From Escherichia phage HY126: a stretch of DNA of 64,000 nucleotides. The notes beneath the pieces are model-generated. The model saw only the letters and a program-made list of their open reading frames with translations, made no database searches and was not told the origin of the DNA. The stretch lies in sequence record PP658200.1; one strand, 5' to 3'. The position numbers and the translations under genes were made by a program. Below, piece after piece: positions 5,272 to 55,385 of this stretch. Within the stretch, counting starts at the first letter, position 1; the number at the start of each line of letters is the position of its first letter.

Positions 5272-6959
5272 TAGATTCGTTCCCATTGATGAGTGATATC
5301 GCCACCGATTGGACGATAGGAAACACCAGTTTCTTTATCAGTTAGTACCCATTTACCAGGATTTTTTGTAATCAGAGTAGCCGTTACAGGTTCTGCTACG
5401 TCATAACTAATAGAGCCGTCCTGAAGTACACGGCCCATGTTACGTAATTGCTTAGTCAGAAGTTCCATACCTTTATAATATGCGGCTACCGCTTTAAGTG
5501 GATTATTCTTGAAATAACCACCTAATGCAATCCAGATAATTGCCACTGCCAAATGATGATACTCGTTAAACGAACTCATCTTTCCATATTTGTAAACTAA
5601 TGGATTGATGTTAATAGACACATTACAAGTTGTTTCATCAATAGTAAACTGTCCCCAAGTCGGATTAGCGTTGAATTCATCATAACCTGAAACAGCGTAA
5701 AGCACTTTAGCTTCATCATACAATTTTGGCCCATAAATCTTGGTTTCACCAAAATATCCACGAGGGTCGATAAACTTGACTTCACAATTATCAGTAATCA
5801 TAGTATTACTGAAGTTCGGGTCGCCATGAATAACAGAGTACTGTCCCTGAGAACGGTTATGATAACGAATAAGGTGTTCTAAAGCTTGTTTCAACATTGG
5901 CTTCAGACGCCCAATCTTAGTGTAGTTCACATGTGTTATTTTACCAAATGAATCAATCAATGGTTGAATACTTTCACAACGATCAATAACTTTAGTATAG
6001 AATTCTTTAGTGAAATCACGACGAACAGTTTCAGGACTTACAAAATAAGTGTCTGTGCTGAATTTCAGTGCATCTAAAATTGCATCAACAATTTGTGGAC
6101 GAGCAAGACTTGATTTGGATTTAATATATTCAAATGCTGGCTTACCTTTAATACGTTCCATAATAAAGTGGCCGCCAGGATGATAACTTACAATCCGTGG
6201 AACTGAATCTGATTTAACTTTCTTATACCAATTGACTTCATCTTTTTGAAGTGCAACGCCCTGTTCTGTTAAAGCAATCTTTGTTACCGTTTCTTCGCCA
6301 ATTTCAACTGCATTAAAACTACGATTAAGTTCACGAACTTCATGAGCTTTTTCAAGTTTAGGCATATCACCAAGGTCGATGATATTCATAAGCTCTGATT
6401 TATTGAATGCGCTGCCGTAAAGGAATTCTACGAAATCACGTCCTTTGCAGTATTCATGAATTTCCTCATCAGTAGAACCCATATAGAATTCCCAGTCTTT
6501 GAACTGATAAATTCCTACAACATTACCACCTGTTGAACCTACATTAGTGATATTTTCACCGTCGAAATTATATCGACATTCGTCACCCTTAACATAGATT
6601 GCGTTAACATTCCAAGACCACGAACCAAAATCAGGAATAATATCACACCAGTTAACAATTACATTATGGCCGTCTAAATCTTTGTGCAATTTAGCAAGAG
6701 CATAAGCAGAACCATACGCTTCATCAACTGTACGAATAGTCACATTGAACCCTTCTTGCTCACAATAAGCTCGAACAGTTTCAGCAAATTTTGAATGAAC
6801 TACTACAATAATTTCATCTGCGCCAAGGTCAGAATAAATTGTATACAAATTGCTCAGAATAGTGTCTTGTTTATAGTTAACAAGCACCTTAGGAATATGA
6901 TGCGTTATTGGATACAAACGAGTTGCCAGTCCAGCACCAAGAATAACAGCTTTTTTCAT
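5271..6959 (-). CDS. Bifunctional sugar-1-phosphate nucleotidyltransferase / sugar kinase
   Basis: ORF track 562 aa; N-term ILGAGLATRLYPIT...PKVLV (NTP-transferase fold); C-term IHGDPNFSN (APH/choline-kinase-like catalytic loop). Confidence 0.75.
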   Translation of the reverse strand: MKKAVILGAGLATRLYPITHHIPKVLVNYKQDTILSNLYTIYSDLGADEIIVVVHSKFAETVRAYCEQEGFNVTIRTVDEAYGSAYALAKLHKDLDGHNVIVNWCDIIPDFGSWSWNVNAIYVKGDECRYNFDGENITNVGSTGGNVVGIYQFKDWEFYMGSTDEEIHEYCKGRDFVEFLYGSAFNKSELMNIIDLGDMPKLEKAHEVRELNRSFNAVEIGEETVTKIALTEQGVALQKDEVNWYKKVKSDSVPRIVSYHPGGHFIMERIKGKPAFEYIKSKSSLARPQIVDAILDALKFSTDTYFVSPETVRRDFTKEFYTKVIDRCESIQPLIDSFGKITHVNYTKIGRLKPMLKQALEHLIRYHNRSQGQYSVIHGDPNFSNTMITDNCEVKFIDPRGYFGETKIYGPKLYDEAKVLYAVSGYDEFNANPTWGQFTIDETTCNVSININPLVYKYGKMSSFNEYHHLAVAIIWIALGGYFKNNPLKAVAAYYKGMELLTKQLRNMGRVLQDGSISYDVAEPVTATLITKNPGKWVLTDKETGVSYRPIGGDITHQWERI

Positions 6960-13982: not shown

Positions 13983-15671
13983 TTATGAAACAGTCATTAC
14001 CGTAAATCGTCCAACTTTGCTCATCTGAAGATGTTGTCCATAAGCTTGTGGGTCATGGTCTCTATGACTAATTATAAACACGTTTGCATCGGTTAGAGAG
14101 TTAAGAATTGTTGAAATAGCTTTAATACCTTCAGAATCAGTAGCGGAATCCATGACTTCGTCCATAATTAATGTATTGATTCTAACACCAGAGACCTTTT
14201 CAGCAATATCTCGCCATGTAAACAACAATGCGATATCGATACGTGCCTTTTCACCTTGACTAAATGAAGCATAACTAAAATCTTCACGACCACGTGATTT
14301 TATAGATTCATTGAATTCTTCGTCAATAGAAAATACGTAATCAGCTTCCATGATTTTAAGATAATGGTTAATCTGCTTGTTGAACAGAGGCACATATTTT
14401 TTAATGATAGCACCTTTAATACCAGAATCTTTTAACATATCTGTGATAATACCACGATGGTATTTTTCAAGAACGATATCAGATTTTGTTTTAATGATTT
14501 TATCAAGTTCTTTTTGAAGCAAAGCTATCTCATCAGCATGGTCGATAAATTCCGCCGAGGCTTGTTCTATTGCAGCTTTAACTTTCTTAGCTTTATCAAT
14601 AGTGGCAATCATTGCTTGTTTCTTGGTACGAATATCAGATGCAAGGTCCTGTTTAGTCTTAACATTAGCTCTATATTCGTCCACTAGGACACTCAGATTA
14701 TCTCTGTGACATGTAAGTTGCTCGAATGAGTGATTACATTCATGAAGCTTATTGGTAATCTTAGAGACAATAGGATCACCCTGGTGCAACTGTGATGCAC
14801 AAGTAGGACATGTACCACCATCATGATACATCTTAATAACTTTGTTATACGAGTCAATTTTAGATTTAATCAAGAATGCTTCTTGTCCTATCTTGTTGAA
14901 TGCCTCAGTAGGGTCTTCATCAAGAACGATATTAAGTAGTCGCTCATTAGCTTCTTCGATTTCTGCTTTTAATGAACGAGCTTCTTTGGCTAGGTCGTCA
15001 TACATATTCTGTAGACGCGCTACATTATCACCAGATAATTTCTTTTGACGTTCGATATTCTCGTTATAAATCTTAATTTGTTGGATAACACCATCTTTCT
15101 TGGCATCGAGAACTTGTCCCTGGGAATTAAGTTCTCGAACTTGAGACTTATTGATTTTATCCATTTCAGCGAGTGTGCCGACTTCTAAAAGGTCTTCGAC
15201 AAGTTTTCTGCGAGCAGGGGTGCTAAGAGCCATGAAAGGGGTATACCCTGCCGTCCCAAGCACAACGATTTGTTTAAAAGACGCGTATGACATTCCGATG
15301 CTGCGTTCAAATTCTTCTTGGAAGTCACGACTGCTGGCAGATTCATCAAGACGAACACCGTCAACGGAGATTTCGAAAATATTGGGCTTTTGGCCACGTT
15401 TAATGAAGTATTTTTTACCATCGAATTCCATCCAAAGCTCAACTAAGAGCTCTTTCTTGTTCGTGCTATTAATGATTTGCCCTTTCTTAACATCACGAAA
15501 TGGTTTACCGAAAAGTCCGAAAGTAATGGCTTCTAACATCGTAGATTTACCACCACCATTTTTACCAGTGATTAATGTCTTTTGGACTTTATCTAATTGG
15601 ATGTCAATAGGATTCCCACCTACCGACATGATGTTTTGATAACGAACACGATTTAATTTAAATGATTTCAT
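13983..15671 (-). CDS. 46: Recombination endonuclease subunit (Rad50/SbcC-like ATPase)
   Basis: ORF track 562 aa; Walker A GKNGGGKST, long coiled coil, C-terminal signature region. Confidence 0.95.
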   Translation of the reverse strand: MKSFKLNRVRYQNIMSVGGNPIDIQLDKVQKTLITGKNGGGKSTMLEAITFGLFGKPFRDVKKGQIINSTNKKELLVELWMEFDGKKYFIKRGQKPNIFEISVDGVRLDESASSRDFQEEFERSIGMSYASFKQIVVLGTAGYTPFMALSTPARRKLVEDLLEVGTLAEMDKINKSQVRELNSQGQVLDAKKDGVIQQIKIYNENIERQKKLSGDNVARLQNMYDDLAKEARSLKAEIEEANERLLNIVLDEDPTEAFNKIGQEAFLIKSKIDSYNKVIKMYHDGGTCPTCASQLHQGDPIVSKITNKLHECNHSFEQLTCHRDNLSVLVDEYRANVKTKQDLASDIRTKKQAMIATIDKAKKVKAAIEQASAEFIDHADEIALLQKELDKIIKTKSDIVLEKYHRGIITDMLKDSGIKGAIIKKYVPLFNKQINHYLKIMEADYVFSIDEEFNESIKSRGREDFSYASFSQGEKARIDIALLFTWRDIAEKVSGVRINTLIMDEVMDSATDSEGIKAISTILNSLTDANVFIISHRDHDPQAYGQHLQMSKVGRFTVMTVS

Positions 15672-15922
15672 ATGTATTCTCTTCGAATGAAGTCCTCTAC
15701 ATATTTTAACATGTCATCTCTATCAGCAAAATATTCATCTAGTTCTGCATACATAACAACACCTGGTGCGTACTCACAGGTAACATACATTGTTCCAAAG
15801 AAACGAGGAGTTGATTCCTCGTAATTCTCAGTCCATTCAACGATACCAATATAACCGTCACCAATACTAAATTCGTGACGATGGATTTCATAGTCAGTCT
15901 TCGTCATTATACGCATCCTCAA
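15668..15922 (-). CDS. Hypothetical protein
   Basis: ORF track 84 aa; start overlaps upstream ORF end. Confidence 0.45.
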   Translation of the reverse strand: MRMRIMTKTDYEIHRHEFSIGDGYIGIVEWTENYEESTPRFFGTMYVTCEYAPGVVMYAELDEYFADRDDMLKYVEDFIRREYI

Positions 15923-16151
15923 TACACGCTTCAGCCATTTTAAGAATAGAGCCAGGAGTATCGTTGTCCATTATATTAAAGCTAAATTCAATAGCCCAGT
16001 CGGTGCAGACATGAACTGCTTTAACTTCATTACCTTCAACGCGTAATGGCTCAATCCAATACTTGATAGTGTTCTCGAATCCATCACCATCTTTAACGTC
16101 TATTTCAGCTTCAAGCCCGAGCCCAGCATTGTTAAATTCATCTAAAGTCAT
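15894..16151 (-). CDS. Hypothetical acidic protein
   Basis: ORF track 85 aa; ATG overlaps gene 47 stop. Confidence 0.45.
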   Translation of the reverse strand: MTLDEFNNAGLGLEAEIDVKDGDGFENTIKYWIEPLRVEGNEVKAVHVCTDWAIEFSFNIMDNDTPGSILKMAEACIEDAYNDED

Positions 16152-17167
16152 TGTGTTGCCTCAATATAAAGTTCGTTAGAATATTTGACCAGCGCTTCTC
16201 TGTCTTCGTCTGAGATATCTGGAATCGCGTCAATATATTCTTTAATGATATCTTGAAGTGATTTAATCTCGATTTCCTGGTCGTCATCAGATTCAACACT
16301 GTTATCAACTTTAGAAACCATACGAAGAGAGTGTACTACTTTTTCAAGTTCAGATTCAAACTTAGTCAACTCTGAATCAATTTCTGATACTATAACACGT
16401 AAGGCTAGATTAGTATAATCAGAATAATTGATTTTGCCTTTAAATGGATAAGTGATTCGTCGATGCCATGTTGTTTCATTAGGAATAAATTCCATACGTT
16501 CAACATCAGTGTCAAATACCCAGAATCCGCGCGGGTCGTTCTCATCGCCTGCAGTAAGTGTCCATGGTGTCCCAATATATTTGACGTTAGCAGCTTCAGA
16601 GATTGTGTGGAAGTGGCCGGACCAGACTTGTTTATAGGTCTTTAAGAAATCAGGTTCAAGCCCATGAGACTTCATTCCTTTATAGAAATAAAAGCCGTTC
16701 AGTTCCCAGTGCCCAACACAATACGCTGCGGAAGAAGTCTTGATGTGCTCTAAGATTTCACCTGTATTTTCTTCACACATCCATGGAACGATATCAATCA
16801 GACATCCGTCAAAATCTACAGTAGTTGGATGCTCGTAAATAGTAAAGTTTTCAAATTGAGTTAACAATTCAGAAACAGTGTTAGGTGTTATTGTATTCTT
16901 AAACGCCATGTCATGGTTTCCTATCGTGACATGAACGTGAATGCCTGCTTTAGAAATCATATCAACAATTTCACGATTGAATTCCATTGTACGATGTGTT
17001 ATTGCTTTACGGACGTCAAACCAATCACCGTACTGAATCCAAGTTTTAATCCCGTGTTTCTTAGAGTATTCAATTGCTTGACGAATACCATCACGTTGAA
17101 TATCTTGAACCCATGGGTCGTCTTGTTTGACTCCGATATGGAAGTCGCCTAAGTGCAAAATTTTCAT
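16148..17167 (-). CDS. 47: Recombination endonuclease subunit (Mre11/SbcD-like phosphoesterase)
   Basis: ORF track 339 aa; MKILHLGDFH, GNHD metallophosphatase motifs. Confidence 0.95.
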   Translation of the reverse strand: MKILHLGDFHIGVKQDDPWVQDIQRDGIRQAIEYSKKHGIKTWIQYGDWFDVRKAITHRTMEFNREIVDMISKAGIHVHVTIGNHDMAFKNTITPNTVSELLTQFENFTIYEHPTTVDFDGCLIDIVPWMCEENTGEILEHIKTSSAAYCVGHWELNGFYFYKGMKSHGLEPDFLKTYKQVWSGHFHTISEAANVKYIGTPWTLTAGDENDPRGFWVFDTDVERMEFIPNETTWHRRITYPFKGKINYSDYTNLALRVIVSEIDSELTKFESELEKVVHSLRMVSKVDNSVESDDDQEIEIKSLQDIIKEYIDAIPDISDEDREALVKYSNELYIEATQ

Positions 17168-39079: not shown

Positions 39080-39420
39080 TACTCTTTGAAAGGAATTAAC
39101 TTTTTAACTGCTTTAGATACTTCGTCACGAACCTGGTGGAAGTTCTTGAGCTGTTCAAGGCGTTGTTCGTAATACGCAATCTCATCTTCTTCAAGACAAT
39201 CGTCAGCGTCTTCTTTCAGATATGCCTTGTACTCATTAAAGAGGGCCCATAGGCGATTCTCAAAGTCATCAAGGCTTTGAATTTTCTTGTGCTTCGGAAC
39301 AAGGCCAAAAGGATTGCTTTCAGTTATGCGTCGAGATGCTTCATAATGAGTTCCAAAGCCTGATAGGATTTGAGCCATTAGTATTTTTCCTCTGGTTGAA
39401 ATACCGCACGACAAGCCCAC
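39079..39420 (-). CDS. Hypothetical protein
   Basis: ORF track 113 aa. Confidence 0.45.
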
Positions 39421-39623
39421 ATACTAGCTTCCTTTAGGCGTTCTTTAGCACAGTTCAATTGGGACAAAGCCGTCAGAGCTTCAGGAGTATTTGCTGATAA
39501 TGCTTCTTCTGCCAGGGCGTCTAGAATAAGTCCTAAACGAACTTCGGCATCTTTAATAGCGTTCACTTTACCGATTTTATCATCGGTATGCGGCTTGTAG
39601 CCTTTGATGTCTTCAATCGACAT
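39378..39623 (-). CDS. Hypothetical 81-aa protein at the T4 vs.4 position
   Basis: Track ORF trimmed to ATG 39623 (GAGG SD); [31 protein letters not shown]... Confidence 0.4.
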
Positions 39624-39837
39624 AAGGAATTTCCTCATCTGTGGCAAGGTCATATTCGACCAATTGGATAGGCTCATTAATACCATATCCACGTACAGTG
39701 ATATCAGTTGCCGGATAGTTTCCAGTAATATCACCCGTTCTAAATGCTTCAATGAATGATTGCTCGCCTGAGCAACTAAACCAGGCGGCAAAACATTTTA
39801 AAACATCTTCAGACCCTTCTATAATCAATTTAGCCAT
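39613..39837 (-). CDS. Hypothetical protein
   Basis: ORF track 74 aa. Confidence 0.45.
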   Translation of the reverse strand: MAKLIIEGSEDVLKCFAAWFSCSGEQSFIEAFRTGDITGNYPATDITVRGYGINEPIQLVEYDLATDEEIPYVD

Positions 39838-41222: not shown

Positions 41223-41552
41223 TTATACTCTAGGCTTTTGAGCTTGTTTGGTATTGGATTCCCATGCAGCTTTGGTAATTTTGTTAGCGGCATAACCAAA
41301 GGCATTAGATAGAACACCTTTAGAGTTGAATACATCCAATCCAATAAGTACACCGGCTGCGTTAAATTTAGGAGCAAAGTATGCATTAGTTTTAGAAAGA
41401 GCTTTTTTCAATTCAGGGTCTTGAACCAAACCATCAAAAACGCCTTTACTATTTACTTTATATGTTACTTTGGGATTTTTACCTTCTTCGATAGCAGCTT
41501 TCTGTTCCGCAGATAATGTAACTTCAGTGATAAACTCTTGATACGTTTTCAT
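41223..41552 (-). CDS. Internal-protein-like, capsid targeting sequence MKTYQEFITE
   Basis: ORF track 109 aa; N-terminal 10 aa match T4 IP targeting/protease-cleavage leader. Confidence 0.65.
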   Translation of the reverse strand: MKTYQEFITEVTLSAEQKAAIEEGKNPKVTYKVNSKGVFDGLVQDPELKKALSKTNAYFAPKFNAAGVLIGLDVFNSKGVLSNAFGYAANKITKAAWESNTKQAQKPRV

Positions 41553-41577
41553 TTTGTTCCTATTGTTTTAATTTATG

Positions 41578-41892
41578 TTATTCTTTAGGGAAGTTTTTAG
41601 AGTATGCATCATAAAGTTTATTACCGATGCGACGGAAGACTTTAGCTGCAAAACGGTTTTCAGGGTTTTTAATCATGATTTGCATCATGTAAGTTCCTGC
41701 ATCCGAAAGAGCTTCTTCATAGTACCCATTAATTTCTTTAAGAGTCCTACGTTTACCACCAGGACCATCAACAGTAATTTTCCATTTACCTGTAGAAGTG
41801 CGGCTAGGTGGCTCAACTTGTTCAATCCAAATATAACCACCTTCAACGCGTTGGTTGGCGGATTCTGCAATAAATTCTTTATACGTTTTCAT
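41578..41892 (-). CDS. Internal-protein-like, capsid targeting sequence MKTYKEFIAE
   Basis: ORF track 104 aa. Confidence 0.65.
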   Translation of the reverse strand: MKTYKEFIAESANQRVEGGYIWIEQVEPPSRTSTGKWKITVDGPGGKRRTLKEINGYYEEALSDAGTYMMQIMIKNPENRFAAKVFRRIGNKLYDAYSKNFPKE

Positions 41893-41913
41893 TTTTGTTT
41901 CCTTGGTTGTTTT

Positions 41914-41952
41914 GATAGAGTAATTATACCATATTAATACTTAAGCGTAAAC
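41914..41952 (-). promoter_or_regulatory. Early-type promoter (GTTTAC-18-TATAAT)
   Basis: Minus sense GTTTAC and TATAAT upstream of 41578..41892; -35 abuts the stop of 41956..42216. Confidence 0.45.
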
Positions 41953-41955
41953 AAT

Positions 41956-42216
41956 TTAAGCTTTACCGCCAGAAATAATTCCGAAGTTGTTAAAATCGTA
42001 TCCAATATCGTCAACATCTACTTTAGGGCTTGCTACAACATAAGCAATTTCACTACGTTTTGCATAGGTGTTGATTTCTTTACCATCGCCACCTAAGAAA
42101 AAATACCCATTACGTTTTAATGAGCCAAAGTCTTCCGCATCACCAATGAAAGCTTTAACTTTAAATTTAGGACCTTTGGCATCTGCTTCAGCGATAAATT
42201 CTTGATACATTTTCAT
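41956..42216 (-). CDS. Internal-protein-like, capsid targeting sequence MKMYQEFIAE
   Basis: ORF track 86 aa. Confidence 0.65.
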   Translation of the reverse strand: MKMYQEFIAEADAKGPKFKVKAFIGDAEDFGSLKRNGYFFLGGDGKEINTYAKRSEIAYVVASPKVDVDDIGYDFNNFGIISGGKA

Positions 42217-42222
42217 TTTTCC

Positions 42223-42636
42223 TTAGTAAATTGATTTACCATAGTATTTGTACCAAGTAGGGCGTTGAGCAATTTTTTCATCTAAGCGAGCTTGACTTAT
42301 CGCAATGGACGCTTCGGACGGGACATAATTATTACGAAATTCGGCAGGGATGTCGGAAATATCCTGGACAGTCGTGTCCTTGATTTTGAAACCACGTTTC
42401 AAGCATTCGGCGATTAGCTCGATTTGACGTAAACGTAAAAATTCGAGTTTGTCGTAAAAGAATGTTACGTGACCTGTGCCTAAGATAAATGTTGGAGAGA
42501 TTTTAAAATCCTTTACACGTTTACCGTTTTGAACATGTTTACGGACTGCACCAAATACGCGTGGTAATTCACGATACTCAGCCATAAGATGTTGGTCAGT
42601 CAGTTCAGAAACAAGTGTTAAATTGATACGAGTCAT
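42223..42636 (-). CDS. denV: Endonuclease V (pyrimidine-dimer DNA glycosylase)
   Basis: Near-identical to T4 DenV from [12 protein letters not shown]; start at fifth codon of track ORF. Confidence 0.9.
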
Positions 42637-42641
42637 AATTT

Positions 42642-42693
42642 CCTCCAAGTAGTTGATGAATGTATAGTATCAAAACCCTTGGAGGAAGTAAAC
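42642..42693 (-). promoter_or_regulatory. Promoter/stem-loop cassette with SD in 3' arm (upstream of denV)
   Basis: Minus sense GTTTAC-tt-CCTCCAAG...TACTATAC...CTTGGAGG-aaatt-ATG. Confidence 0.5.
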
Positions 42694-42694
42694 A

Positions 42695-42976
42695 CTATTT
42701 TTCTGAAGCGCCTGAAATATATTTTTCAAGACGTTGTTTCATCAGCGAGCCGTTCTTAGCGATTTCTTCCGGTTTATCGCACATACGTAACAAGGCTTCA
42801 AGCTTAGCGATATCGCTGGTACGTTCAAATTTGCGAGTATCTATCTTACTAGCAAGTTCAGAAATACGTGCTAGTAGACTTTCGGCTTCAACCAAAGCTG
42901 CACCTAGCTTAGTTGCAAATGTGTCAGTAGCTTCGTTAAGAATAGATTCTGATAAAAATTCACTATAGGTTTTCAT
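42695..42976 (-). CDS. Internal-protein-like, capsid targeting sequence [10 protein letters not shown]
   Basis: Track ORF trimmed to ATG 42976, overlapping gene e stop (ATGA). Confidence 0.65.
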
Positions 42977-43461
42977 ATATACGCTTTCCAAGTTCCTGTT
43001 TTAAATGTTGAGATTACACGTTTCGCGCGATTAGGTGTCTGACGATACCATTTAGATTGGGCTAGATTTACTGCCGCTTCATCCCAACGTTTCTGTTGAA
43101 GCATACGAAGAGAATTAGTAAAACCAGCGACGCCTGCTACACCCATTTGGAAGACCATATTGACCAATGCACAACGACGAACCGCATCTAAAGAATCATA
43201 TACAGGTTTAAGTTTAGCATTACCTAAGATTCCGCGAACGGCTTTATCAACGTCTTCATTAAATAGCTTTTCAGCCTCATCAAGGGTAATTGTACCGTTG
43301 CATTTACGACCGATCATTCTGTCAAGTTCAGCTTTAGCTACGGCTAAAGACGGGTTCTTTGTTACTAAATGGCCTATGCCAATCGTCCAAAAGCCTTCAG
43401 TGTCTTTGTATAAAGTCAGTCTAAGACCTTCGTCATTACGAAGCATTTCAAATATATTCAT
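42973..43461 (-). CDS. e: Endolysin (T4 lysozyme)
   Basis: Near-identical to T4 lysozyme from MNIFEMLR...[22 protein letters not shown]; track start is an upstream GTG. Confidence 0.95.
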
Positions 43462-43954: not shown

Positions 43955-44195
43955 CTCGGTCCCATGATTTGGCCATTAATTCGGACATAAATTCTTCAAT
44001 GCGCGTTTCTTTAGATGGACTTTCACTATTAGAGACCGCAAGTTTGTAATCTGCAATAGGACAGAACATATCAAGGTCCATATTAAGGTCGTCTTTGATT
44101 TTTTCTTCTGACACATCTTTATCGTATGTGTACAGATAACTATCACATGATTCTGATTTAATGTAAATTGCTATACTCATCTCAAATTCCTGCAT
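43944..44195 (-). CDS. Hypothetical acidic protein
   Basis: ORF track 83 aa. Confidence 0.45.
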   Translation of the reverse strand: MQEFEMSIAIYIKSESCDSYLYTYDKDVSEEKIKDDLNMDLDMFCPIADYKLAVSNSESPSKETRIEEFMSELMAKSWDRDDE

Positions 44196-44668
44196 TCGGT
44201 AATAAAACGTTCAACTTCATTATTCTTGGCTTTTATCTTGTCTTTATGTTCTTGTAAACTACTTTTAATAAGATTAATAATGATGCCTACAGTACCTCCA
44301 CCAATTATACCGCCAATTATACTTACGATAGTAGATGCTAATAAGATAGCAATAATATCAACAAAACCGAAAGAACTCACCTTAGTACTAAAAAACCACA
44401 CTGATGGTACAAATATAATCCATCCTGTTATCCATTGACACTTATTGAAAAACTTTTCAAGCTCAGCTTGAGTTGTTCGTATTACTTCATCGATAGGTTG
44501 ATAACCATTAATATGTCTGTTCACGATAATACCTGCTGGCTGGTCGATTTTAAATTCTTGGCAAATACGTTTCACTAAGTAGGATGGACATCCTGTCCAA
44601 TCCACTGAATAGTACGAAATACCTTCATTGCCGTCGTCAATATTAGACCAATATGTTTTGTTAATCAT
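44177..44668 (-). CDS. Membrane protein, C-terminal ERFITECR motif family
   Basis: ORF track 163 aa; hydrophobic helices then Lys-rich tail ending NEVERFITECRNLR. Confidence 0.55.
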   Translation of the reverse strand: MINKTYWSNIDDGNEGISYYSVDWTGCPSYLVKRICQEFKIDQPAGIIVNRHINGYQPIDEVIRTTQAELEKFFNKCQWITGWIIFVPSVWFFSTKVSSFGFVDIIAILLASTIVSIIGGIIGGGTVGIIINLIKSSLQEHKDKIKAKNNEVERFITECRNLR

Positions 44669-45381
44669 TACCAGCCTTCCATAGGGAATTCCAGATAAAC
44701 TTGAGCGTTGACACGAATTTCGTTGGTAATCTTTTTAACTCGGTCTGTATTACGAGATACACGTCCGAACCAACGCCATCCATTACTAATTGCACGAGAA
44801 CCAGTGTGCCATGTTTGCCAATCAAACTGAAGAAGAGTACGGTCTGGAGCTTCCCATTTCTCTAGTTCGCCTTTTTCGATTTTTTCGAGGACTTCTTTGT
44901 GCCACTGGCGATAGATAAGTTCGCCATCAGGAATCTGACTGAACTCTGCAGTTCCTGTTGCAAAATGAGTAGGACACACATCAGCGTTAACAAGACCAAG
45001 AATATGTTCAGAATGGTAACGAGGGTTGTCATAATCAGGTTGTCCTGCAGTAATAAAGTGTTGACCAACCGGAATATCCGGGCGTGGTACATCATCATGG
45101 TGATAACCTGGGATAGCAGGGTACCAACCAGGCATCAGCATGTGGACTCGTGAATCAAATACAACCTGGTCGGTGTTCCAATCATCAGGCAAGTTCATGA
45201 TGAAGCTGCGAGTAATAGGACCACCGTTATTATAAGCAAATTCTAAACTACAGTTGAAGAACATAGGCTCGTTTTTAATCTGGTCATTTTTAATCGCATG
45301 AGCAAAACCACCTACTGCACGAGCTTGACTATTAAACACTTTAGAACTATTCATATTATTTTCCTCGACATTCTTTAACAA
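44668..45381 (-). CDS. Hypothetical protein
   Basis: ORF track 237 aa; Trp/His/Pro-rich, no recognised motif. Confidence 0.55.
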   Translation of the reverse strand: MLKNVEENNMNSSKVFNSQARAVGGFAHAIKNDQIKNEPMFFNCSLEFAYNNGGPITRSFIMNLPDDWNTDQVVFDSRVHMLMPGWYPAIPGYHHDDVPRPDIPVGQHFITAGQPDYDNPRYHSEHILGLVNADVCPTHFATGTAEFSQIPDGELIYRQWHKEVLEKIEKGELEKWEAPDRTLLQFDWQTWHTGSRAISNGWRWFGRVSRNTDRVKKITNEIRVNAQVYLEFPMEGW

Positions 45382-45661
45382 AATTTTCTAAATCTGTTGA
45401 TTCAATAGCTTTTTTACGAGCTTCAGCGTGTTCTTCTTCAGTTAATCTACGTTTAAACTTGACCCAAACATTATGGTCGAAACCTGTTGTCGCGTATAAT
45501 AACAGAGCACCAACGAATAACAAAAACGGTGATAAAAATACACAACCAGGAACACCGTCCATGCCATAGGCCTTTTGTAATACTGCAACAGAAAGCACAG
45601 CATAAAAAGGTGATGTAAGTATCGTTAAAAGGCCAATTCGGTTGGTTTCGGATAATTTCAT
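45356..45661 (-). CDS. Membrane protein, C-terminal ENFVKECR motif family
   Basis: Track ORF trimmed to ATG 45661 (GGAG SD; MKLSETNRIG...); two TM helices; ends ENFVKECRGK. Confidence 0.55.
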   Translation of the reverse strand: MKLSETNRIGLLTILTSPFYAVLSVAVLQKAYGMDGVPGCVFLSPFLLFVGALLLYATTGFDHNVWVKFKRRLTEEEHAEARKKAIESTDLENFVKECRGK

Positions 45662-45680
45662 AATATTCTCCTCATGTTTA

Positions 45681-45718
45681 ATAGGACTACTATAACATAG
45701 TCCTATCAGTTTGTACAC
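45681..45718 (-). promoter_or_regulatory. Promoter/stem-loop cassette
   Basis: Minus sense GTGTACA...TGTTATAGTAGTCCTAT with inverted repeat ATAGGACTA/TAGTCCTAT. Confidence 0.5.
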
Positions 45719-47286: not shown

Positions 47287-47484
47287 TTAGCAAGAATAAC
47301 TAGACGATACCCAGCCTTGAACAGTGATACTATTGTGGGATAATGAGATCGCGTCCTGGAGATTCAGACCTGCGTTATCTTCAATCCATAACGTAACTTC
47401 TTCGCGTTCTTCTGTTGCAATTTGGAACAGGTTTTCCAGAGCAGCTACTGCCGTACGTACAGCACAATCTAATTCACGAGACAT
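47287..47484 (-). CDS. Small acidic protein, member 1 of C-terminal W-x-SS-x-x-C triad
   Basis: ORF track 65 aa; ends QGWVSSSYSC. Confidence 0.5.
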   Translation of the reverse strand: MSRELDCAVRTAVAALENLFQIATEEREEVTLWIEDNAGLNLQDAISLSHNSITVQGWVSSSYSC

Positions 47485-47493
47485 ATGGTTTCC

Positions 47494-47766
47494 TTAGCAA
47501 GTGTGAGAAGATGCGATCCAACCACCAGTTTCGAGGCTTAGGTTGTAGTCGTATTGGTAAACGTCGGCCCATTCAGCATAGCCGTTTTTTGTACAACGTT
47601 CAAGGTCGGCTTTAAGCTGTCCGGGTGAATGATATGTTCCACCCATACCATAAGCTGGATACAAGTCGAATGTTGTGTTTTGTTTATCAGCAATTTCTTT
47701 GGCAGCCTCAATAGCTGCATAGATTTTTGCTACAGCTTCAGCCAGTTCGGTTTGTTCTTTAGACAT
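47494..47766 (-). CDS. Small acidic protein, member 2 of triad
   Basis: ORF track 90 aa; ends TGGWIASSHTC. Confidence 0.5.
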   Translation of the reverse strand: MSKEQTELAEAVAKIYAAIEAAKEIADKQNTTFDLYPAYGMGGTYHSPGQLKADLERCTKNGYAEWADVYQYDYNLSLETGGWIASSHTC

Positions 47767-47775
47767 AGTGATTCC

Positions 47776-48081
47776 TTAGCACAACGCAGAAGACGAAACC
47801 CAAGCACCTTCAGTAATAACGTAACCATTACCTTCACGCTTAACATCGCCACCATTATTTTCAATTTCATTTTTCATCCACTGGGATACGATTTCACCCT
47901 TAGGATAATAAGTACGACCGCTACCATAATCACCTACAGAAAATGATACGGCATATTGGTCTGCGATCTTTGTTGCTTCTTCTTCGATACGTTCAGCTTG
48001 ATTCAGAAGTTTATAAATTGCATCTGAAGCGGATTTGGCATCATTAAACTCTGGTACTTTAATTTCAATAATCTTACTCAT
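47776..48081 (-). CDS. Small acidic protein, member 3 of triad
   Basis: ORF track 101 aa; ends EGAWVSSSALC. Confidence 0.5.
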   Translation of the reverse strand: MSKIIEIKVPEFNDAKSASDAIYKLLNQAERIEEEATKIADQYAVSFSVGDYGSGRTYYPKGEIVSQWMKNEIENNGGDVKREGNGYVITEGAWVSSSALC

Positions 48082-48437
48082 TTTCTACATTCCTTAATAA
48101 AGTTTTCGATTGTTTCATTTTCACGTCTAGCTAGGAGTTCATTATAACTAATCATTTGAGAAGCGTAAACCTTTTTATTTTTCTTGTTGTGGTTTATAAA
48201 ATCGTAGTAAAAATAGACTACAGTACAAAATGATGCGATGGATGCAAAGGCTTGGGTATACCGTAAGTCCTGCCATTGGTCTGTGAATCCACCAGTGTTC
48301 CCTATAAATCCTAACACAACGCCGTCAATAAGAAATCCAACTAATCCAAAGGCAAATCCCATGCCAATACTCATAATAAAAATTAGAATGTTCTCACCAA
48401 GAGAAGGCCATACGGTTAAGAGTTGAGGCTTTTGCAT
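48078..48437 (-). CDS. Membrane protein, C-terminal ENFIKECR motif family
   Basis: ORF track 119 aa; two TM helices; ends ENETIENFIKECRK. Confidence 0.55.
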   Translation of the reverse strand: MQKPQLLTVWPSLGENILIFIMSIGMGFAFGLVGFLIDGVVLGFIGNTGGFTDQWQDLRYTQAFASIASFCTVVYFYYDFINHNKKNKKVYASQMISYNELLARRENETIENFIKECRK

Positions 48438-48811
48438 CTTATTTCCTTAACGAATTCCATAGCTTCTTCATATTCATACTTTTTAACAGCTTCATCATAC
48501 TGAGCTTGGGCTTTTGCGCACTGAACTTTCCATTCTCTTAATCGGGCTCTGTGATGACGGCCTTGGTGCCAATATCCTACCCAATTAATAGGCATTAATA
48601 AAAACGGTACAATAAGTGGTGCGACGAACATTAATGAAAATGCTGCATCAGACGATATAACTTCACTAGAATCTAAAACAGCTCCTATAATCATAAAGAT
48701 TAAAAATGCTAAAGCCAAAATAGGGCCAAATAGTACTTCGTTTGGGATTAATTTACGTTTGTATTCGTATGCCCAGGGCTTAATTGGCATGTACAGGGTT
48801 GGCTTTGACAT
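48416..48811 (-). CDS. Membrane protein, C-terminal MEFVKEIRCK motif family
   Basis: Track ORF (TTG start 48841) trimmed to first ATG 48811; start uncertain. Confidence 0.5.
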   Translation of the reverse strand: MSKPTLYMPIKPWAYEYKRKLIPNEVLFGPILALAFLIFMIIGAVLDSSEVISSDAAFSLMFVAPLIVPFLLMPINWVGYWHQGRHHRARLREWKVQCAKAQAQYDEAVKKYEYEEAMEFVKEIRCKSLNS

Positions 48812-49382
48812 ATTCTCTACATTCCATAATAAATTGCTCAAGGATTAAATTGTTAGTGAAATTAGGACTAACAACCATAGTTTCATAAAGCGCATCAATA
48901 GCACTTAAAGCATCAACTCTTTTAAGCAAAAGCTTGCCTTCATACATAGTTTCAGAATCGACGATTAACGTAAAGTAATATTTTTTATTATCGACTAGAA
49001 CTTCTGTATCGATATAAAACATATTAGACCTCAGAAGCTTATCTCTAAAACCATAATAATCTTCTGAATGTTCACTGATATATTCCCATTCAGTGTTTAA
49101 ACAACAAACAGACCACGTAGGAGCGACGAAATCAGTGAATCTAATATCATGGTCTGCAACTAGTTTAGCAATAGCTCCGATATCATGAATCATAATACCT
49201 GGGGCTAATAAAGATTTTCTGCTATGGCTAGCCGTTTTCTCGGTGGTCTCATAAGAAGCTGACCAGTACCATTTACGTCCGGTTGCAACATATCGTAATG
49301 AATCAACTAAAGACGTAGGTGGATTTACCTTATCTCGGAACTCTTCGAACATTGAGTCAATATCATTATTTTGGTTTCGCAT
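48780..49382 (-). CDS. Hypothetical protein with LEQFIMECRE motif near C-terminus
   Basis: Track ORF trimmed to ATG 49382 (MRNQNNDIDSMFEEF...). Confidence 0.5.
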   Translation of the reverse strand: MRNQNNDIDSMFEEFRDKVNPPTSLVDSLRYVATGRKWYWSASYETTEKTASHSRKSLLAPGIMIHDIGAIAKLVADHDIRFTDFVAPTWSVCCLNTEWEYISEHSEDYYGFRDKLLRSNMFYIDTEVLVDNKKYYFTLIVDSETMYEGKLLLKRVDALSAIDALYETMVVSPNFTNNLILEQFIMECREYVKANPVHAN

Positions 49383-49431
49383 GTTAACTCCTTTATTATC
49401 CAAAAGGAGGACCGGAGTCCTCCGTATTATT

Positions 49432-51206: not shown

Positions 51207-51833
51207 TTACTTACGAGTTTTTGCATACTGAGCAGCGTCAGCAGCCAAACGACCTGCCTGACGAAGTTTTTCTTTAATCGCATCGTGAAGTGGTTGAGTA
51301 TACTTCAAACCTTCGATAGTCAAATAAAGACGATAAAGGTCTGGGGTATCAAGGTTGTTGATATGTTGGCCATTACGAAGACTGTTGAATTCACGAACGA
51401 GTGAAGATGTATCGGATTCAATATCACGAACAAGCGAAGATAGTTGTTTATATTTTTTTTCCAGGCTAGAAGTATCAAACTTAAGAGCAGGAGCTTTAGG
51501 AGTTGCTTTTACTTCCGGCTTAGGCTCAGGTTTTGCTATTGCTTTAGGGGTCGCAGGTTTAGGAACGGTAGGAGCAGGTTTTACTTTAGGCGAACCCGAT
51601 TTAGCAGAAACACCGCCACTAACAATATCTTTGAATGCTTTAGAAGCTCTGTAATATTCTTTTTGGCTGGAAGTGTCGATACCATACATGGCTTGAACGT
51701 TTTTGAAAAACTCTGTACTAGTTTTTGTACCAGAAATAGCATCGTAAGCAGCTTGCCATTTCTCTTTTGTCATACGTACACCGGCTTCGGTGATTACTTC
51801 CGTTTCGGCTAAAAATTCATTAAAAGTATACAT
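51207..51833 (-). CDS. Internal-protein-like (leader MYTFNEFLAE) with Lys/Pro/Ala-rich central region
   Basis: ORF track 208 aa; CTS-like leader; SPKVKPAPTVPKPATPKAIAKPEPKPEVKATPKAP low-complexity segment. Confidence 0.6.
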   Translation of the reverse strand: MYTFNEFLAETEVITEAGVRMTKEKWQAAYDAISGTKTSTEFFKNVQAMYGIDTSSQKEYYRASKAFKDIVSGGVSAKSGSPKVKPAPTVPKPATPKAIAKPEPKPEVKATPKAPALKFDTSSLEKKYKQLSSLVRDIESDTSSLVREFNSLRNGQHINNLDTPDLYRLYLTIEGLKYTQPLHDAIKEKLRQAGRLAADAAQYAKTRK

Positions 51834-51868: not shown

Positions 51869-51876
51869 TATTTATA
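51869..51876 (-). promoter_or_regulatory. Late promoter TATAAATA
   Basis: Exact TATAAATA on minus strand ~36 nt upstream of the 51833 ATG. Confidence 0.5.
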
Positions 51877-51877
51877 C

Positions 51878-51906
51878 AAAAAAGCCCCAACCTTTCGGAA
51901 GGGGCT
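51878..51906 (-). terminator. Rho-independent terminator (AGCCCC-loop-GGGGCU + U6)
   Basis: GC stem and six U on the minus-strand transcript, 3' of the ORF-free 51950..52200 region. Confidence 0.7.
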
Positions 51907-51949
51907 ATATACCTTGTCGGGGTTTCCACCTACTAAGGCAAGTGTTTGT

Positions 51950-52195
51950 ACGAAACGCCGGGATTCGAACCCGGTTATTAAGCAGTTGACGCTACTCAAT
52001 ATTTTTAAAAGGCCATATCTCGACCATATCCGAACGTTCCGTCAAAAACGCTACTCGGCTTACGGCAAAGATATTTCCTCGAATCGATAATTCTTTGCGC
52101 CGTTTCTGCTGTGATGTAAGGGGATATTAACAAATCATAAAGATTTATTAAGACCAGTCCTTACTCAGGGAACATCAGTCCGACGACTTGCCGGT
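51950..52195 (-). ncRNA. Candidate stable RNA with tRNA-like 3' end (T4 rnaC/rnaD-like position)
   Basis: ~250 nt without credible ORF; minus-strand 3' end CCGGGTTCGAATCCCGG-CGTTTCG mimics tRNA T-arm/acceptor but no full cloverleaf; several internal stems. Confidence 0.3.
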
Positions 52196-52209
52196 AGCGA
52201 CCCGGCTTC

Positions 52210-52554
52210 TTATTTTGACATATCATCAATTTGTTCTCTACGTCTACGCCATAGATTAATTACTTCATCAACACATTCAGCATTTGGTATATGACGACAA
52301 TAGTATAGTGATTCGCGTTTCTGGAACCGATGTTGTAATGGAATTTCGTTTAAAAGGTCTTTACGGTCAAAGTATTCAAAACTAGTTAACCCGGAACGGT
52401 TTTTAAGAAACTTCCAATGTCCGAATTCATTTTGAAAATAGACATAATCAGCATGCTGATACAGCGAATTAATTAACCTATCGGAAATAACTGTTTCACG
52501 TTCGTTAAAATAAAACGTTAAGTCATGAACTACCAGATAAATATTGCCTTTCAT
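52210..52554 (-). CDS. Hypothetical protein
   Basis: Track ORF trimmed to ATG 52554 with GAGG SD (MKGNIYLVVHDLTF...). Confidence 0.45.
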   Translation of the reverse strand: MKGNIYLVVHDLTFYFNERETVISDRLINSLYQHADYVYFQNEFGHWKFLKNRSGLTSFEYFDRKDLLNEIPLQHRFQKRESLYYCRHIPNAECVDEVINLWRRRREQIDDMSK

Positions 52555-52633
52555 ATTTTCCTCACTTAAAGTTGGTGCCTCTAGAAAGATTTGAACTCTC
52601 ACCATTAACCTTAGAACGATTATATGCTATCCA

Positions 52634-53299
52634 TTACACTATAGAGGCAATTAAATTATTTACAATATCTTCTTTATAAACTTCAGCATAATGAAGTTCA
52701 TATATTTCCCATCCTAATGATTTTATAATATCATGGCGTTCTTTATAATAAGGGGCCAAAATCTTTTTCTTAGGATTGGAGTAATGTTGGTTTCCATTAA
52801 CTTCAATAATAATCTTTTTATCTATTAAAGCAATATCCGTGCAATACGCTCGGTTTTTAACCGGTTGGTATTCTTCAATAAATGAAATTCCGTTTTCTAT
52901 TAATTTAGATTTCAAAAATTCACAAGGCACAGATTTAAATTTTGTATTTTTCTTCCAAGGATGTTTATCAGGGTTTTCATTCAACCATTTTTTCCGAGCA
53001 TTAGATATTTTTATTCTAGATTCCTCAGAGTGTTCTCTACCTAATGAAGCGGCTGACAATTTTTGTCTAGTCTCTTCCGAAATTACTACAGGGACACCAG
53101 TCTTTTTAGATACAACATACTGGTTTAAATTACCTGAAGCTATACGTGCTTTATTCATTGCTGCAATGGCTGATTTAGAACTTTCTTTATACAATTCCAA
53201 TTTAGGGTTGGATTTACACCATCTAGTGTGGTTAGCCATCCATCCTTTAGGTTTATTAGAAATATCAAATTCCATATTACAATGTTTACAAATGCTCAT
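52634..53299 (-). CDS. Freestanding homing-endonuclease-like protein (Zn finger + NUMOD-like repeats + DUF559/Vsr-like nuclease)
   Basis: CKHC...HTRWC; ISEETRQKLSAASLGREHSEESRIKISNARK; IIEVNGNQHY...ELHYAEV; start at ATG 53299 (track start is TTG 53305). Confidence 0.6.
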   Translation of the reverse strand: MSICKHCNMEFDISNKPKGWMANHTRWCKSNPKLELYKESSKSAIAAMNKARIASGNLNQYVVSKKTGVPVVISEETRQKLSAASLGREHSEESRIKISNARKKWLNENPDKHPWKKNTKFKSVPCEFLKSKLIENGISFIEEYQPVKNRAYCTDIALIDKKIIIEVNGNQHYSNPKKKILAPYYKERHDIIKSLGWEIYELHYAEVYKEDIVNNLIASIV

Positions 53300-53309
53300 T
53301 ACCAATTAT

Positions 53310-53328
53310 CTCCTATAAAATATAGGAG
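53310..53328 (-). promoter_or_regulatory. SD-sequestering hairpin upstream of the endonuclease-like gene
   Basis: CTCCTATA-ttt-TATAGGAG; 3' arm contains AGGAG 10 nt before the 53299 ATG. Confidence 0.4.
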
Positions 53329-53373
53329 TATTTATTATTTGGATAGAGCACTTAATTTACTTCGTTTAAATTA

Positions 53374-53445
53374 CTGGCGCACTTGGACTCGAACCAAGAT
53401 AAAGGAGTTAACAGCTCCCCGTAATAACCTTTATACGATGCACCA
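53374..53445 (-). tRNA. tRNA-Asn (anticodon GUU), CCA not encoded
   Basis: Hand-folded: acceptor TGGTGCA/TGCGCCA, D-arm with GG, anticodon stem GGGAG/CTCCT loop CTGTTAA, T-arm CTTGG-TTCGAGT-CCAAG. Confidence 0.8.
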
Positions 53446-53451
53446 TTTGTT

Positions 53452-53526
53452 TGGTGACCCTGGCTGGTTTCGATCCAGCTACCTATCAGTTATGAGCTGA
53501 CAGCTCTCCCATTGAGCTACAGGGCC
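53452..53526 (-). tRNA. tRNA with CAU anticodon (Met, or Ile if lysidine-modified), CCA encoded
   Basis: Hand-folded: acceptor GGCCCTG/CAGGGTC, D-arm GCTC-AATGGGA-GAGC, anticodon loop CTCATAA, T-arm GCTGG-ATCGAAA-CCAGC, 3' ACCA. Confidence 0.8.
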
Positions 53527-55033: not shown

Positions 55034-55321
55034 TTACAGAAGAGTTTTTGCAATAATTTTAAGCTGAGCTACAGAAATGTGCTTAGCTTTAAACAGTGCA
55101 GTCTCTTCAGCCGGAGAGATAACAATAGTAGCGCCATCTTTCTTAGCGGACCACCCGTCTCCTAAGTAAACAGTACCTTTTACTTCTTCGCCGTCAGCTA
55201 GACTAATCATTGGTTTACCCTCACGGCCTTTGTTTGCTTTAATAACTTCGGAAGTAAGGGTTGCTTCAGTCAGAGTAGAAACGTTAGCAACAGGTGATAT
55301 AAATTCTTTATAGGTTTTCAT
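55034..55321 (-). CDS. Internal protein I-like (MKTYKEFISP leader), positional ipI
   Basis: ORF track 95 aa; CTS leader; lies just upstream of 57B as ipI does in T4. Confidence 0.7.
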   Translation of the reverse strand: MKTYKEFISPVANVSTLTEATLTSEVIKANKGREGKPMISLADGEEVKGTVYLGDGWSAKKDGATIVISPAEETALFKAKHISVAQLKIIAKTLL

Positions 55322-55346: not shown

Positions 55347-55385
55347 GATAGGATGATAGTAACACACCATCATCCTTATGTAAAC
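55347..55385 (-). promoter_or_regulatory. Promoter/stem-loop cassette
   Basis: Minus sense GTTTACA-taAGGATGATG...TTACTATCATCCTATC; 8-bp inverted repeat. Confidence 0.5.

Follow-up and report, generated by a model that had tools for sequence, protein, structure and literature searches.

The 64,000-nucleotide (nt) stretch of Escherichia phage HY126 analysed here (record PP658200.1; hereafter the window) contains a group of small genes around denV whose products begin with almost the same residues and then part company, which raises the question as to what this common beginning does and what kind of protein it marks. A first-pass annotation of the window, made from the sequence alone, had read it as the leader that directs the internal proteins (IPs) of phage T4 into the prohead and had proposed an arsenal of effectors injected with the DNA. 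Our analysis favours the same reading: with a probability of roughly 0.8 the six genes that carry the leader, designated A to F, encode T-even internal proteins (Ip) that are packed in the head, injected into the host and active against restriction. The sequence features, the family assignments, the synteny and the exchange of cassettes are demonstrated by the analysis itself. For A-E we infer packaging, cleavage, injection and anti-restriction activity from work on T4; F is identified by its sequence as the known GmrSD inhibitor IPI.

Exactly six open reading frames (ORFs) in the window begin with a leader of the T4 capsid-targeting type, all of them from ATG and on the minus strand, and they are the same six that the first-pass annotation had picked out (Table 1). 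All start at Met1 as M-(K/Y)-(T/M)-(Y/F)-x-E-F and they stand well clear of the background: in a BLOSUM scan of every 10-residue segment in six frames the six leaders score 50-53 and the runner-up, which does not lie at a start codon, scores 30, while the pattern M[KY][TM][YF].EF[IL] finds 6 matches in the window and 0 in 100 shuffles. A Shine-Dalgarno sequence of the AGGA/AAGGA type precedes five of the six genes, the exception being D. Four of the genes lie around denV, as had been described, with denV itself between C and D. The consensus earlier given for these four, MKTY(Q/K/S)EF(I/L)(T/A/S)E, does not hold for C, which begins MKMY; the two further leader genes, E and F, are also present, but E begins MYTF and F has Pro and not Glu at position 10. 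At the DNA level the leader is a dispersed 32-nt repeat of four copies (78-84% identity), whose codons vary synonymously among the copies (ACG/ACC/ACT, ATC/ATT/ATA/TTA, GAA/GAG) while the peptide is kept, and constraint therefore acts on the peptide.

Mutagenesis of T4 IPIII has shown residues 4 and 7 to be the main determinants of targeting, and residues 8 and 10 to be required for processing (summarised in PMC9026906). All six window proteins retain an aromatic residue at 4, Phe at 7 and Ile or Leu at 8, and Glu10 is present in A-E. Together with the assignment of F, D and B to named internal protein families this supports the identification of the leader of A-F as the T4 capsid targeting sequence. 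The cleavage motif of the prohead protease gp21, (L/I)-x-Glu, closes the leader as ITE10 in A, IAE10 in B and C, LSE10 in D and LAE10 in E, and is found in F as LTE19. Additional family-conserved (L/I)-x-Glu sites occur in D (LNE15) and in E (ITE16, invariant). In the family formed by D and Ip5 the motif at residue 15 is conserved (LNE↓A, with ITE↓S in Ip5, the arrow marking the cut) and several members have no Glu10; in the E family Glu16 is invariant within (L/I)(S/T/N)E↓A, and the leader of the relatives is the canonical MKTYNEFLNE. Because family comparison shows these conserved second motifs, cuts at 15 and 16 are predicted for D and E. A 10-residue leader, as originally described, thus suits A, B and C, but the part removed from D, E and F probably amounts to 15, 16 and 19 residues, possibly by way of two cuts.

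Sequence and synteny mark F as the ipI ortholog and a true IPI. Its identity to T4 IPI, which is encoded at the corresponding locus, is 87%, Pfam PF11634 (IPI_T4) matches residues 20-95 with an E-value of 1.1e-49 and 166.7 bits (cutoff 25), and the solved mature protein IPI* (2JUB_A) matches the same residues (2e-41, 76/76 residues). Because residues 20-95 match the mature chain, the propeptide of F is taken as 19 residues ending LTE19↓A, which leaves a mature IPI* of 76 amino acids (aa). D is assigned by sequence to the Ip5 family: both D (2e-46) and RB32 Ip5 (1e-49) match phrog_3499, D is 48% identical to T2/RB32 Ip5 over 84 residues, the leader-trimmed sequences co-cluster, and the GenBank annotation of RB32 already notes the similarity of its Ip5 to RB69ORF127c, the D ortholog. 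The ATG of D and the stop of the lysozyme gene e share bases (ATGA), an arrangement suggestive of translational coupling. B in turn is assigned to the Ip10 family: along its whole length it shares 72-73% identity with the proteins that go by the name Ip10 in VR25 and Shigella phage SP18, leader-trimmed clustering concurs, and it is 96% identical to its counterpart in some Tequatroviruses of the order e-denV-B-Ip4. The predicted mature B has 94 aa and an isoelectric point (pI) of 9.6. Its protein cluster is labelled 'Escherichia coli' and includes a 489-kb contig; the five carriers listed among 24 contigs, which do not include the 489-kb one, are T-even phage genomes of ~167 kb. As to the idea that B shares the IPI* fold, the AlphaFold model, made from a 4-sequence alignment, reached a predicted local distance difference test score (pLDDT) of only 49 and was too uncertain to support it.

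C, with a predicted mature product of 76 aa and pI 6.4, is already annotated as 'internal head protein' in RefSeq APCEc01 and VR25. A, whose predicted mature product has 99 aa (10.6 kDa, pI 9.7), matches 90 phage records, 76 of them at ≥95% identity (those listed or examined being Mosigvirus) and 13 below 60%, where those listed are of the Dhakavirus type at ~35-37% identity; it is labelled 'hypothetical' in every record listed and gave no Pfam, NCBIfam or PADLOC match. PHROG families appear to offer links for both, C matching the Ip7 family phrog_2667 at 5e-20 and A and B both matching phrog_3966 (1e-32 and 1e-34). In order to judge such links we took eight phage loci and 120 IMG/VR loci, built small family alignments of their proteins and ran HHalign on these with and without the leader. 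With the leader kept, pairs reach 90-95% probability but align over columns 1-12 or 1-15 only; once the first 11 residues are removed every pair falls to ≤0.5%. C as an Ip7 relative was accordingly rejected (94.6% over columns 1-15, 0.5% without the leader), as was the paralogy of A and B (92.5% over columns 1-12, 0.2% without it). Because the probability collapses on trimming, the groupings in phrog_3966 and phrog_2667 are artefacts of the common leader, and leaders should be masked before such proteins are clustered.

The claim that the proteins are unrelated beyond the leader is upheld by HHalign of the leader-trimmed family alignments, in which no pair exceeds 0.7% probability, and by BLASTP of the mature parts, all against all, in which the best E-value is the 0.12 of A and B. 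Against T4 IPII and IPIII essentially only the N-terminal leader of A-E aligns in BLASTP, the longest alignment covering the first 26 residues (E against IPIII); the single downstream match has E = 0.5, and IPII and IPIII belong to other PHROGs (7857, 5341). A PADLOC search for similarity to known defence-system proteins gave no match. The predicted mature sizes of the six (8-22 kDa) fit those of the T4 IPs, and A, B, E and F also share their basic pI (9.0-9.7, net charge +2 to +12), A and B being proteins of ~10-11 kDa.

E differs from the others in its position. Its predicted mature product of 21.9 kDa and pI 9.7 is in the size class of T4 IPIII* (20.4 kDa), and of the 143 records that match it, every one listed calls it 'hypothetical'. 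With 13 representative clusters in a set of 1.84 billion proteins, this is a small family. The gene lies at the rnaC/e.8 junction, outside both classical Ip hotspots, directly after homologs of rnaD and rnaC and behind its own terminator-like hairpin and a perfect late promoter. Homologs occupy the same position, after the tRNA cluster and before e.8, in Dhakavirus JS98 and Karamvirus KaAlpha, and RB69 has there a distantly related, diverged and apparently frameshifted allele, ORF149c. Homologs were matched in further genera; position was compared for JS98, KaAlpha and RB69. As a minor addition to what is known, E thus appears to occupy a third, undescribed Ip locus and to be conserved across at least four genera. 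Its structural model contains two confident helical domains (residues ~20-72 and ~122-206, pLDDT ~85) connected by a disordered Pro/Ala/Lys linker that is longer in some homologs than in others. Searched against the PDB the model gave no significant fold match, the best hits being generic helical hairpins (WXG100/EsxA-like) at E > 1, and an NCBIfam TonB match (E = 0.003) was discarded as covering only the Pro/Lys-rich linker.

Sequence comparison places the window in a T-even phage of the genus Mosigvirus (RB69-like). The 2.6-kb region around the leader genes is 98.8% identical to Escherichia phages JN02 and GADS24 and 98.0% identical to the RefSeq genome APCEc01, per-gene identity to RB69 is 95-98.5%, and the G+C content of the window is 37%. 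In the direction of transcription the order is gene 1, 57A, 57B, F (ipI), trna.4/3/2, tRNAs, rnaD, rnaC and E, followed by e.6...e.2, nudE, e, D, denV, C, B, A, vs.8, vs.7 and vs.6, so that A-D and F sit in the classical variable Ip hotspots (e-denV-vs.8 and 57B-trna.4). RB69, the closest reference phage, encodes gp67, gp68, gp21 and gp22; the loci of genes 67, 68, 21 and 22 fall outside the 64-kb window. The DNA of the window phage presumably carries arabinosyl-hydroxymethylcytosine (arabinosyl-hmC), taken as a property of the genus (PMC6024577, PMC8594841).

Each of the phages examined has its own permutation of leader genes in the e-denV-vs.8 interval, the window sharing its arrangement, e-D-denV-C-B-A, with APCEc01. 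T4 has e-ipIII-ipII-denV, VR25 e-Ip5-denV-Ip10-(C-like)-Ip7, WG01 e-(132 aa)-(IPIII-like)-denV-(A-like)-(85 aa), Tequatrovirus slur14 e-D-denV-Ip4, Tequatrovirus teqhal e-denV-B-Ip4 and Karamvirus KaAlpha e-(B-like) without denV. The set had been called expanded, which is true relative to T4 but not relative to RB69, which in the loci compared has seven leader genes (six by leader scan plus ORF127c, whose leader is degenerate), or to WG01 and VR25, each with four in the e-denV locus alone. RB69 also has an extra Ip7-like gene (ORF156c) beside ipI to which the window has no counterpart. D in slur14 has 97.5% nt identity to the window copy, compared with 81% (e) and 80% (denV) for the flanks, and is closer to it than the copy of RB69 (94.7%); B in teqhal has 88.7% nt identity compared with 75-77% for its flanks. 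These identities indicate that D was exchanged recently between genera. The genes sit in recombination-prone hotspots at which phages swap cargo cassettes, and the conserved leader DNA offers one homology block for such exchange.

How such proteins would act is taken from T4, where the leader sends IPs, and foreign proteins fused to it, into the core of the prohead and is then removed by gp21, and where hundreds of IP copies stay in the head and enter the cell with the DNA (PMC9026906, PMC3012670). By analogy, the N-terminal capsid targeting sequence of the window proteins would bind the assembling scaffold core (gp22 and partners) so that they are built into the prohead. The protease gp21 would then cut after (L/I)-x-Glu at residue 10 in A, B and C and at residue 19 in F, and probably after residue 15 in D and 16 in E, possibly also after residue 10 in these two. 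The small mature proteins would remain in the DNA-filled head and be ejected into the cell with the genome, where they would act before phage gene expression, inhibiting stoichiometrically and with high specificity those host nucleases that are directed at DNA with hypermodified cytosine, namely type IV restriction enzymes like GmrSD or McrBC. T4 IPI blocks GmrSD of E. coli CT596, and Ip2 and Ip3 block two other highly diverged GmrSDs without cross-protection, Ip2 targeting GmrSD-ECOR21/BrxU and Ip3 GmrSD-ECOR17 (PMC12373910). RB69 IPI is reported to protect RB69, with its arabinosyl-hmC DNA, from GmrSD (PMC6024577). In phage Bas37 the ipI locus encodes a leader protein, Bas37_0260, that blocks McrBC (HIDEN-SEQ preprint, 10.1101/2025.11.20.689424), and Ip loci have been described as anti-defence hotspots (Silas 2025, PMC12373910). 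In addition, two internal virion proteins encoded beside an e-type lysozyme have been detected by mass spectrometry in virions of T4-like Klebsiella phages.

Several observations weigh against this reading. When ip4-10 were set against 15 GmrSD groups there was no reproducible inhibition (Silas, PMC12373910), and a model restricted to GmrSD is therefore unproven for the Ip5 and Ip10 families to which D and B belong. Our literature search found no virion proteomics for HY126 or for A-E. The RB69 orthologs carry defects: that of A has Ala in place of Glu10, that of B (ORF124c) is truncated at the C-terminus and that of D has a degenerate leader (MKTYMNFYQN); individual members are therefore dispensable, and there may be non-functional copies among them. 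In contrast to the basic T4 IPs, mature C and D have a near-neutral pI (6.3-6.4). Transcription signals are mixed, with a perfect late promoter at E only and early-type sites at B and F, and for A-C late expression is an assumption taken over from T4. Finally, structure prediction of the mature domains, which had been proposed as a check, gave two helical domains for E but yielded no functional clue for either B or E.

A different account of the packaged proteins is that they mainly serve the virion by neutralising DNA charge, organising the condensate or aiding scaffold and core assembly, and do not inhibit defences; this is how T4 IPs used to be seen, as basic proteins associated with DNA. 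The basic character of A, B, E and F would suit this, and in T4 there are ~1000 IP molecules per head with lysine-phosphate contacts and polyheads form in IPIII- mutants (PMC9026906, PMC3012670); the distribution of E over several genera, its late promoter and its IPIII-like size also suit a structural role better than a strain-specific one. All three T4 IPs, however, have specific anti-restriction targets, C and D are not basic, and the extreme diversity of the cargo, its presence/absence variation and its exchange between genera are signatures of an arms race and not of a structural requirement. We regard a mainly structural role as unlikely, and the two roles are not mutually exclusive. It is more improbable still that the common N-terminus is a module of DNA, comprising the ribosome-binding site and the first codons, which recombination has spread, with some of the genes (C, E and those with early promoters, for example) encoding cytoplasmic accessory proteins: the leader-coding DNA is indeed a dispersed repeat, early-type promoters stand at B and F, the A-D cluster has no perfect late promoter and variant leaders diverge at positions 2-5, but the peptide is kept despite synonymous codons as expected of protein-level selection, the variants retain aromatic-4, Phe-7, Ile/Leu-8 and Glu-10, the T4 IPI leader is itself a variant (MKTFKEFTST) and yet is packaged, relatives of E bear the canonical MKTY leader, and across a wider set of leader ORFs the leader lies at Met1 in 176/176 and ends in (L/I/V/F)xE at residue 10 in 157/176, figures that are mostly enforced by the search pattern.

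The promoter evidence behind these arguments is as follows. Within the A-D cluster a single strong promoter-like site occurs, the early-type one upstream of B, and the copy of TATAAATA upstream of E is the only perfect late-promoter copy near any of the six genes; this motif is not enriched in the window (7 observed and 8 expected).

The leader is also found beyond the window. The wider set comes from an exact-pattern scan of IMG/VR with the back-translated leader, which returned at least 120 loci; the pattern carries ~40 bits and chance matches are therefore negligible. Together with the reference loci these contain 176 distinct leader-bearing ORFs of 49-610 aa, which BLASTP (E < 1e-4) resolves into at least 73 cargo families, the six window proteins falling into six different ones. 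Recognisable enzymes among the cargo include an S-adenosylmethionine lyase family domain (2.9e-15), a cytidylyltransferase-like domain and a P-loop AAA_33 domain. Enzymes may therefore be delivered by the leader route too; many of the source contigs are metagenomic. A pool of this size supports the arsenal idea and suggests that the catalogue goes far beyond the roughly ten named Ips, but it is drawn from other phages.

From these results a bolder picture can be drawn, which we put forward tentatively and consider rather doubtful as a whole. E and RB69ORF149c would define the third internal protein locus at rnaC/e.8, encoding a late-expressed, IPIII-sized, two-domain injected protein in at least four Tevenvirinae genera; E and A, the latter restricted to Mosigvirus and Dhakavirus, would counter defences beyond the known GmrSD and McrBC, for example nucleases that recognise arabinosyl-hmC DNA; and the leader would mark an effector pool far beyond the named Ips, with its many cargo families and enzymes included.

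Table 1. Leader genes, associated signals and other features discussed in the text; coordinates refer to the window unless another sequence is named
Feature	Coordinates	Strand	Remarks
A	41223..41552	minus	109 aa; leader MKTYQEFITE; = RB69ORF123c
B	41578..41892	minus	104 aa; leader MKTYKEFIAE; Ip10 family (assigned by sequence)
C	41956..42216	minus	86 aa; leader MKMYQEFIAE; = RB69ORF125c
denV	42223-42636	minus	between C and D
D	42695..42976	minus	93 aa; second family-conserved cleavage motif LNE15↓A; = RB69ORF127c; Ip5 family (assigned by sequence)
Lysozyme gene e	42973-43461	minus	immediately upstream of D
E	51207..51833	minus	208 aa; leader MYTFNEFLAE; invariant second motif ITE16↓A
F (ipI)	55034..55321	minus	95 aa; leader MKTYKEFISP; between 57B and trna.4 as in T4
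T4-early-type promoter-like site upstream of B	41923..41952	minus	GTTTAC, 18-nt spacer, TATAAT, TG before -10 hexamer; consensus match only
T4-early-type promoter-like site upstream of F (ipI)	55356..55385	minus	GTTTAC, 18-nt spacer, TACTAT; consensus match only
T4 late-promoter motif TATAAATA	51869..51876	minus	43 nt upstream of the ATG of E
Terminator-like GC hairpin and T-run	51878..51906	minus	between rnaC homolog and late promoter of E; read from sequence
rnaC and rnaD homologs	51949-52087, 52096-52213	minus	pair of stretches
tRNA genes (Arg-TCT, Asn-GTT, Met-CAT)	52573-53526		three genes
223-aa ORF	52634-53305		among the tRNAs
Five ORFs with C-terminal F(I/V)xE(C/I)R	44177-44668, 45356-45718, 48078-48437, 48416-48841, 48780-49403	minus	ends ...FITECRNLR, ...FVKECRGK, ...FIKECRK, ...FVKEIRCKS, ...FIMECREYV
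Three tandem small ORFs	47287-47484, 47494-47766, 47776-48081	minus	65, 90 and 101 aa; common ending W(V/I)(S/A)SS(Y/H/A)(S/T/L)C
ORF at vs.4 position	39378-39791		positional counterpart of Tequatrovirus vs.4-position gene
Tequatrovirus vs.4-position gene (loci L133-L137)	6393-6676		Pfam Acb2_Tad1_hairpin
RB69 (locus L007), loci differing from window	2670-2996, 5789-6229, 14576-14857, 15660-15932, 16001-16330		
Example leader ORFs, IMG/VR loci (L010-L129)	L104 at 2127, L043 at 2372, L071 at 754, L109 at 2261		

The surroundings of the leader genes hold some further features (Table 1). Homologs of the T4 tRNA-like stable RNAs rnaC and rnaD, both unannotated, were found by direct BLAST of the ORF-free stretch upstream of E; they have no Rfam family and no ARAGORN call. 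Over 139 nt the rnaC homolog matches T4 at 98.6% identity, well in excess of the 75-86% seen in the genes around it, and the rnaD homolog is 85.7% identical. The window has only three tRNA genes in this region, compared with eight in T4, and the 223-aa ORF among them lies at the position of the T4 homing endonuclease gene segB. Five small ORFs that neighbour one another, several apparently encoding membrane proteins, share the C-terminal motif F(I/V)xE(C/I)R, which may be a recurrent gene-end module, and three tandem small ORFs with a common ending of their own look like tandem paralogs. Downstream of vs.6 in Tequatrovirus loci the gene at the vs.4 position matches Pfam Acb2_Tad1_hairpin, a sponge that counters antiphage signalling based on cyclic oligonucleotides (CBASS). 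If its positional counterpart in the window is the same gene, the Ip hotspot adjoins another known anti-defence gene.

As a kind, leader-tagged injected anti-restriction proteins are already known: the arsenal proposed for the window is a real finding, correctly interpreted and supported by our analysis, and it equals the published model (PMC3012670, PMC12373910, 10.1101/2025.11.20.689424), a line of work that begins with Repoila 1994 and the Black laboratory and extends to Silas 2025 and the 2025 preprint. The established picture is unchanged. What we add is modest and consists of refined cleavage sites, the recent exchange of D between genera, the third locus of E and the leader-driven mis-clustering in PHROGs. 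The latter has a general side, in that whole-sequence family tools such as PHROGs mis-group Ip proteins through their common leader. A and E are leader-defined candidate internal proteins without a named family, and for annotation their 'hypothetical' label in databases should give way to candidate internal protein, while the predicted maturation sites provide testable N-termini. Internal proteins act before phage gene expression and therefore help to set which wild E. coli strains a T-even phage infects, and this effect on strain range bears on the choice of therapeutic phages.

Among known systems there is a likeness to DarA, DarB and Hdf of phage P1 and to the ejection proteins of T7, N4 and phiKZ-like phages, which are also packaged in the head, delivered with the DNA and able to pre-empt host nucleases, but which have no sequence relationship to the window proteins, use other packaging signals, are much larger and do not belong to one family with them. 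Bas37_0260, likened here by description, shares the leader logic and the kind of locus and is evidence that type IV enzymes besides GmrSD lie within reach of Ip cargo. Ip5 (T2, T6, RB32), Ip10 (SP18, VR25), Ip7, Ip9 and Ip4, described by Repoila et al. 1994 and in later genome annotations, are leader-tagged cassettes in the same hotspots as the window genes. Ip5 in T2 and RB32 sits at the ipI locus in place of ipI, whereas the Ip5-like D adjoins e and coexists with ipI, and the links of C to Ip7 and of A, through its PHROG, to Ip10 vanish once the leader is trimmed. With T4 IPII and IPIII the window genes have in common the leader, the cleavage motif and the hotspot beside e and denV; A and B resemble IPII* in size and charge (~10-11 kDa, pI 9.6-9.7) and E resembles IPIII*, but past the leader A-E have no sequence or profile similarity to them, the gene order differs and E lies at another locus. 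F is the ortholog of T4 IPI (PF11634, 2JUB), from which it differs by 12 substitutions, by a leader nearer the IPII/IPIII type (MKTYKEFI, compared with MKTFKEFT) and by the phage DNA, presumably arabinosyl-hmC here and glucosyl-hmC in T4, and with which it shares the locus 57B-ipI-trna.4, the length and the 19-residue propeptide ending in (I/L)TE↓A.

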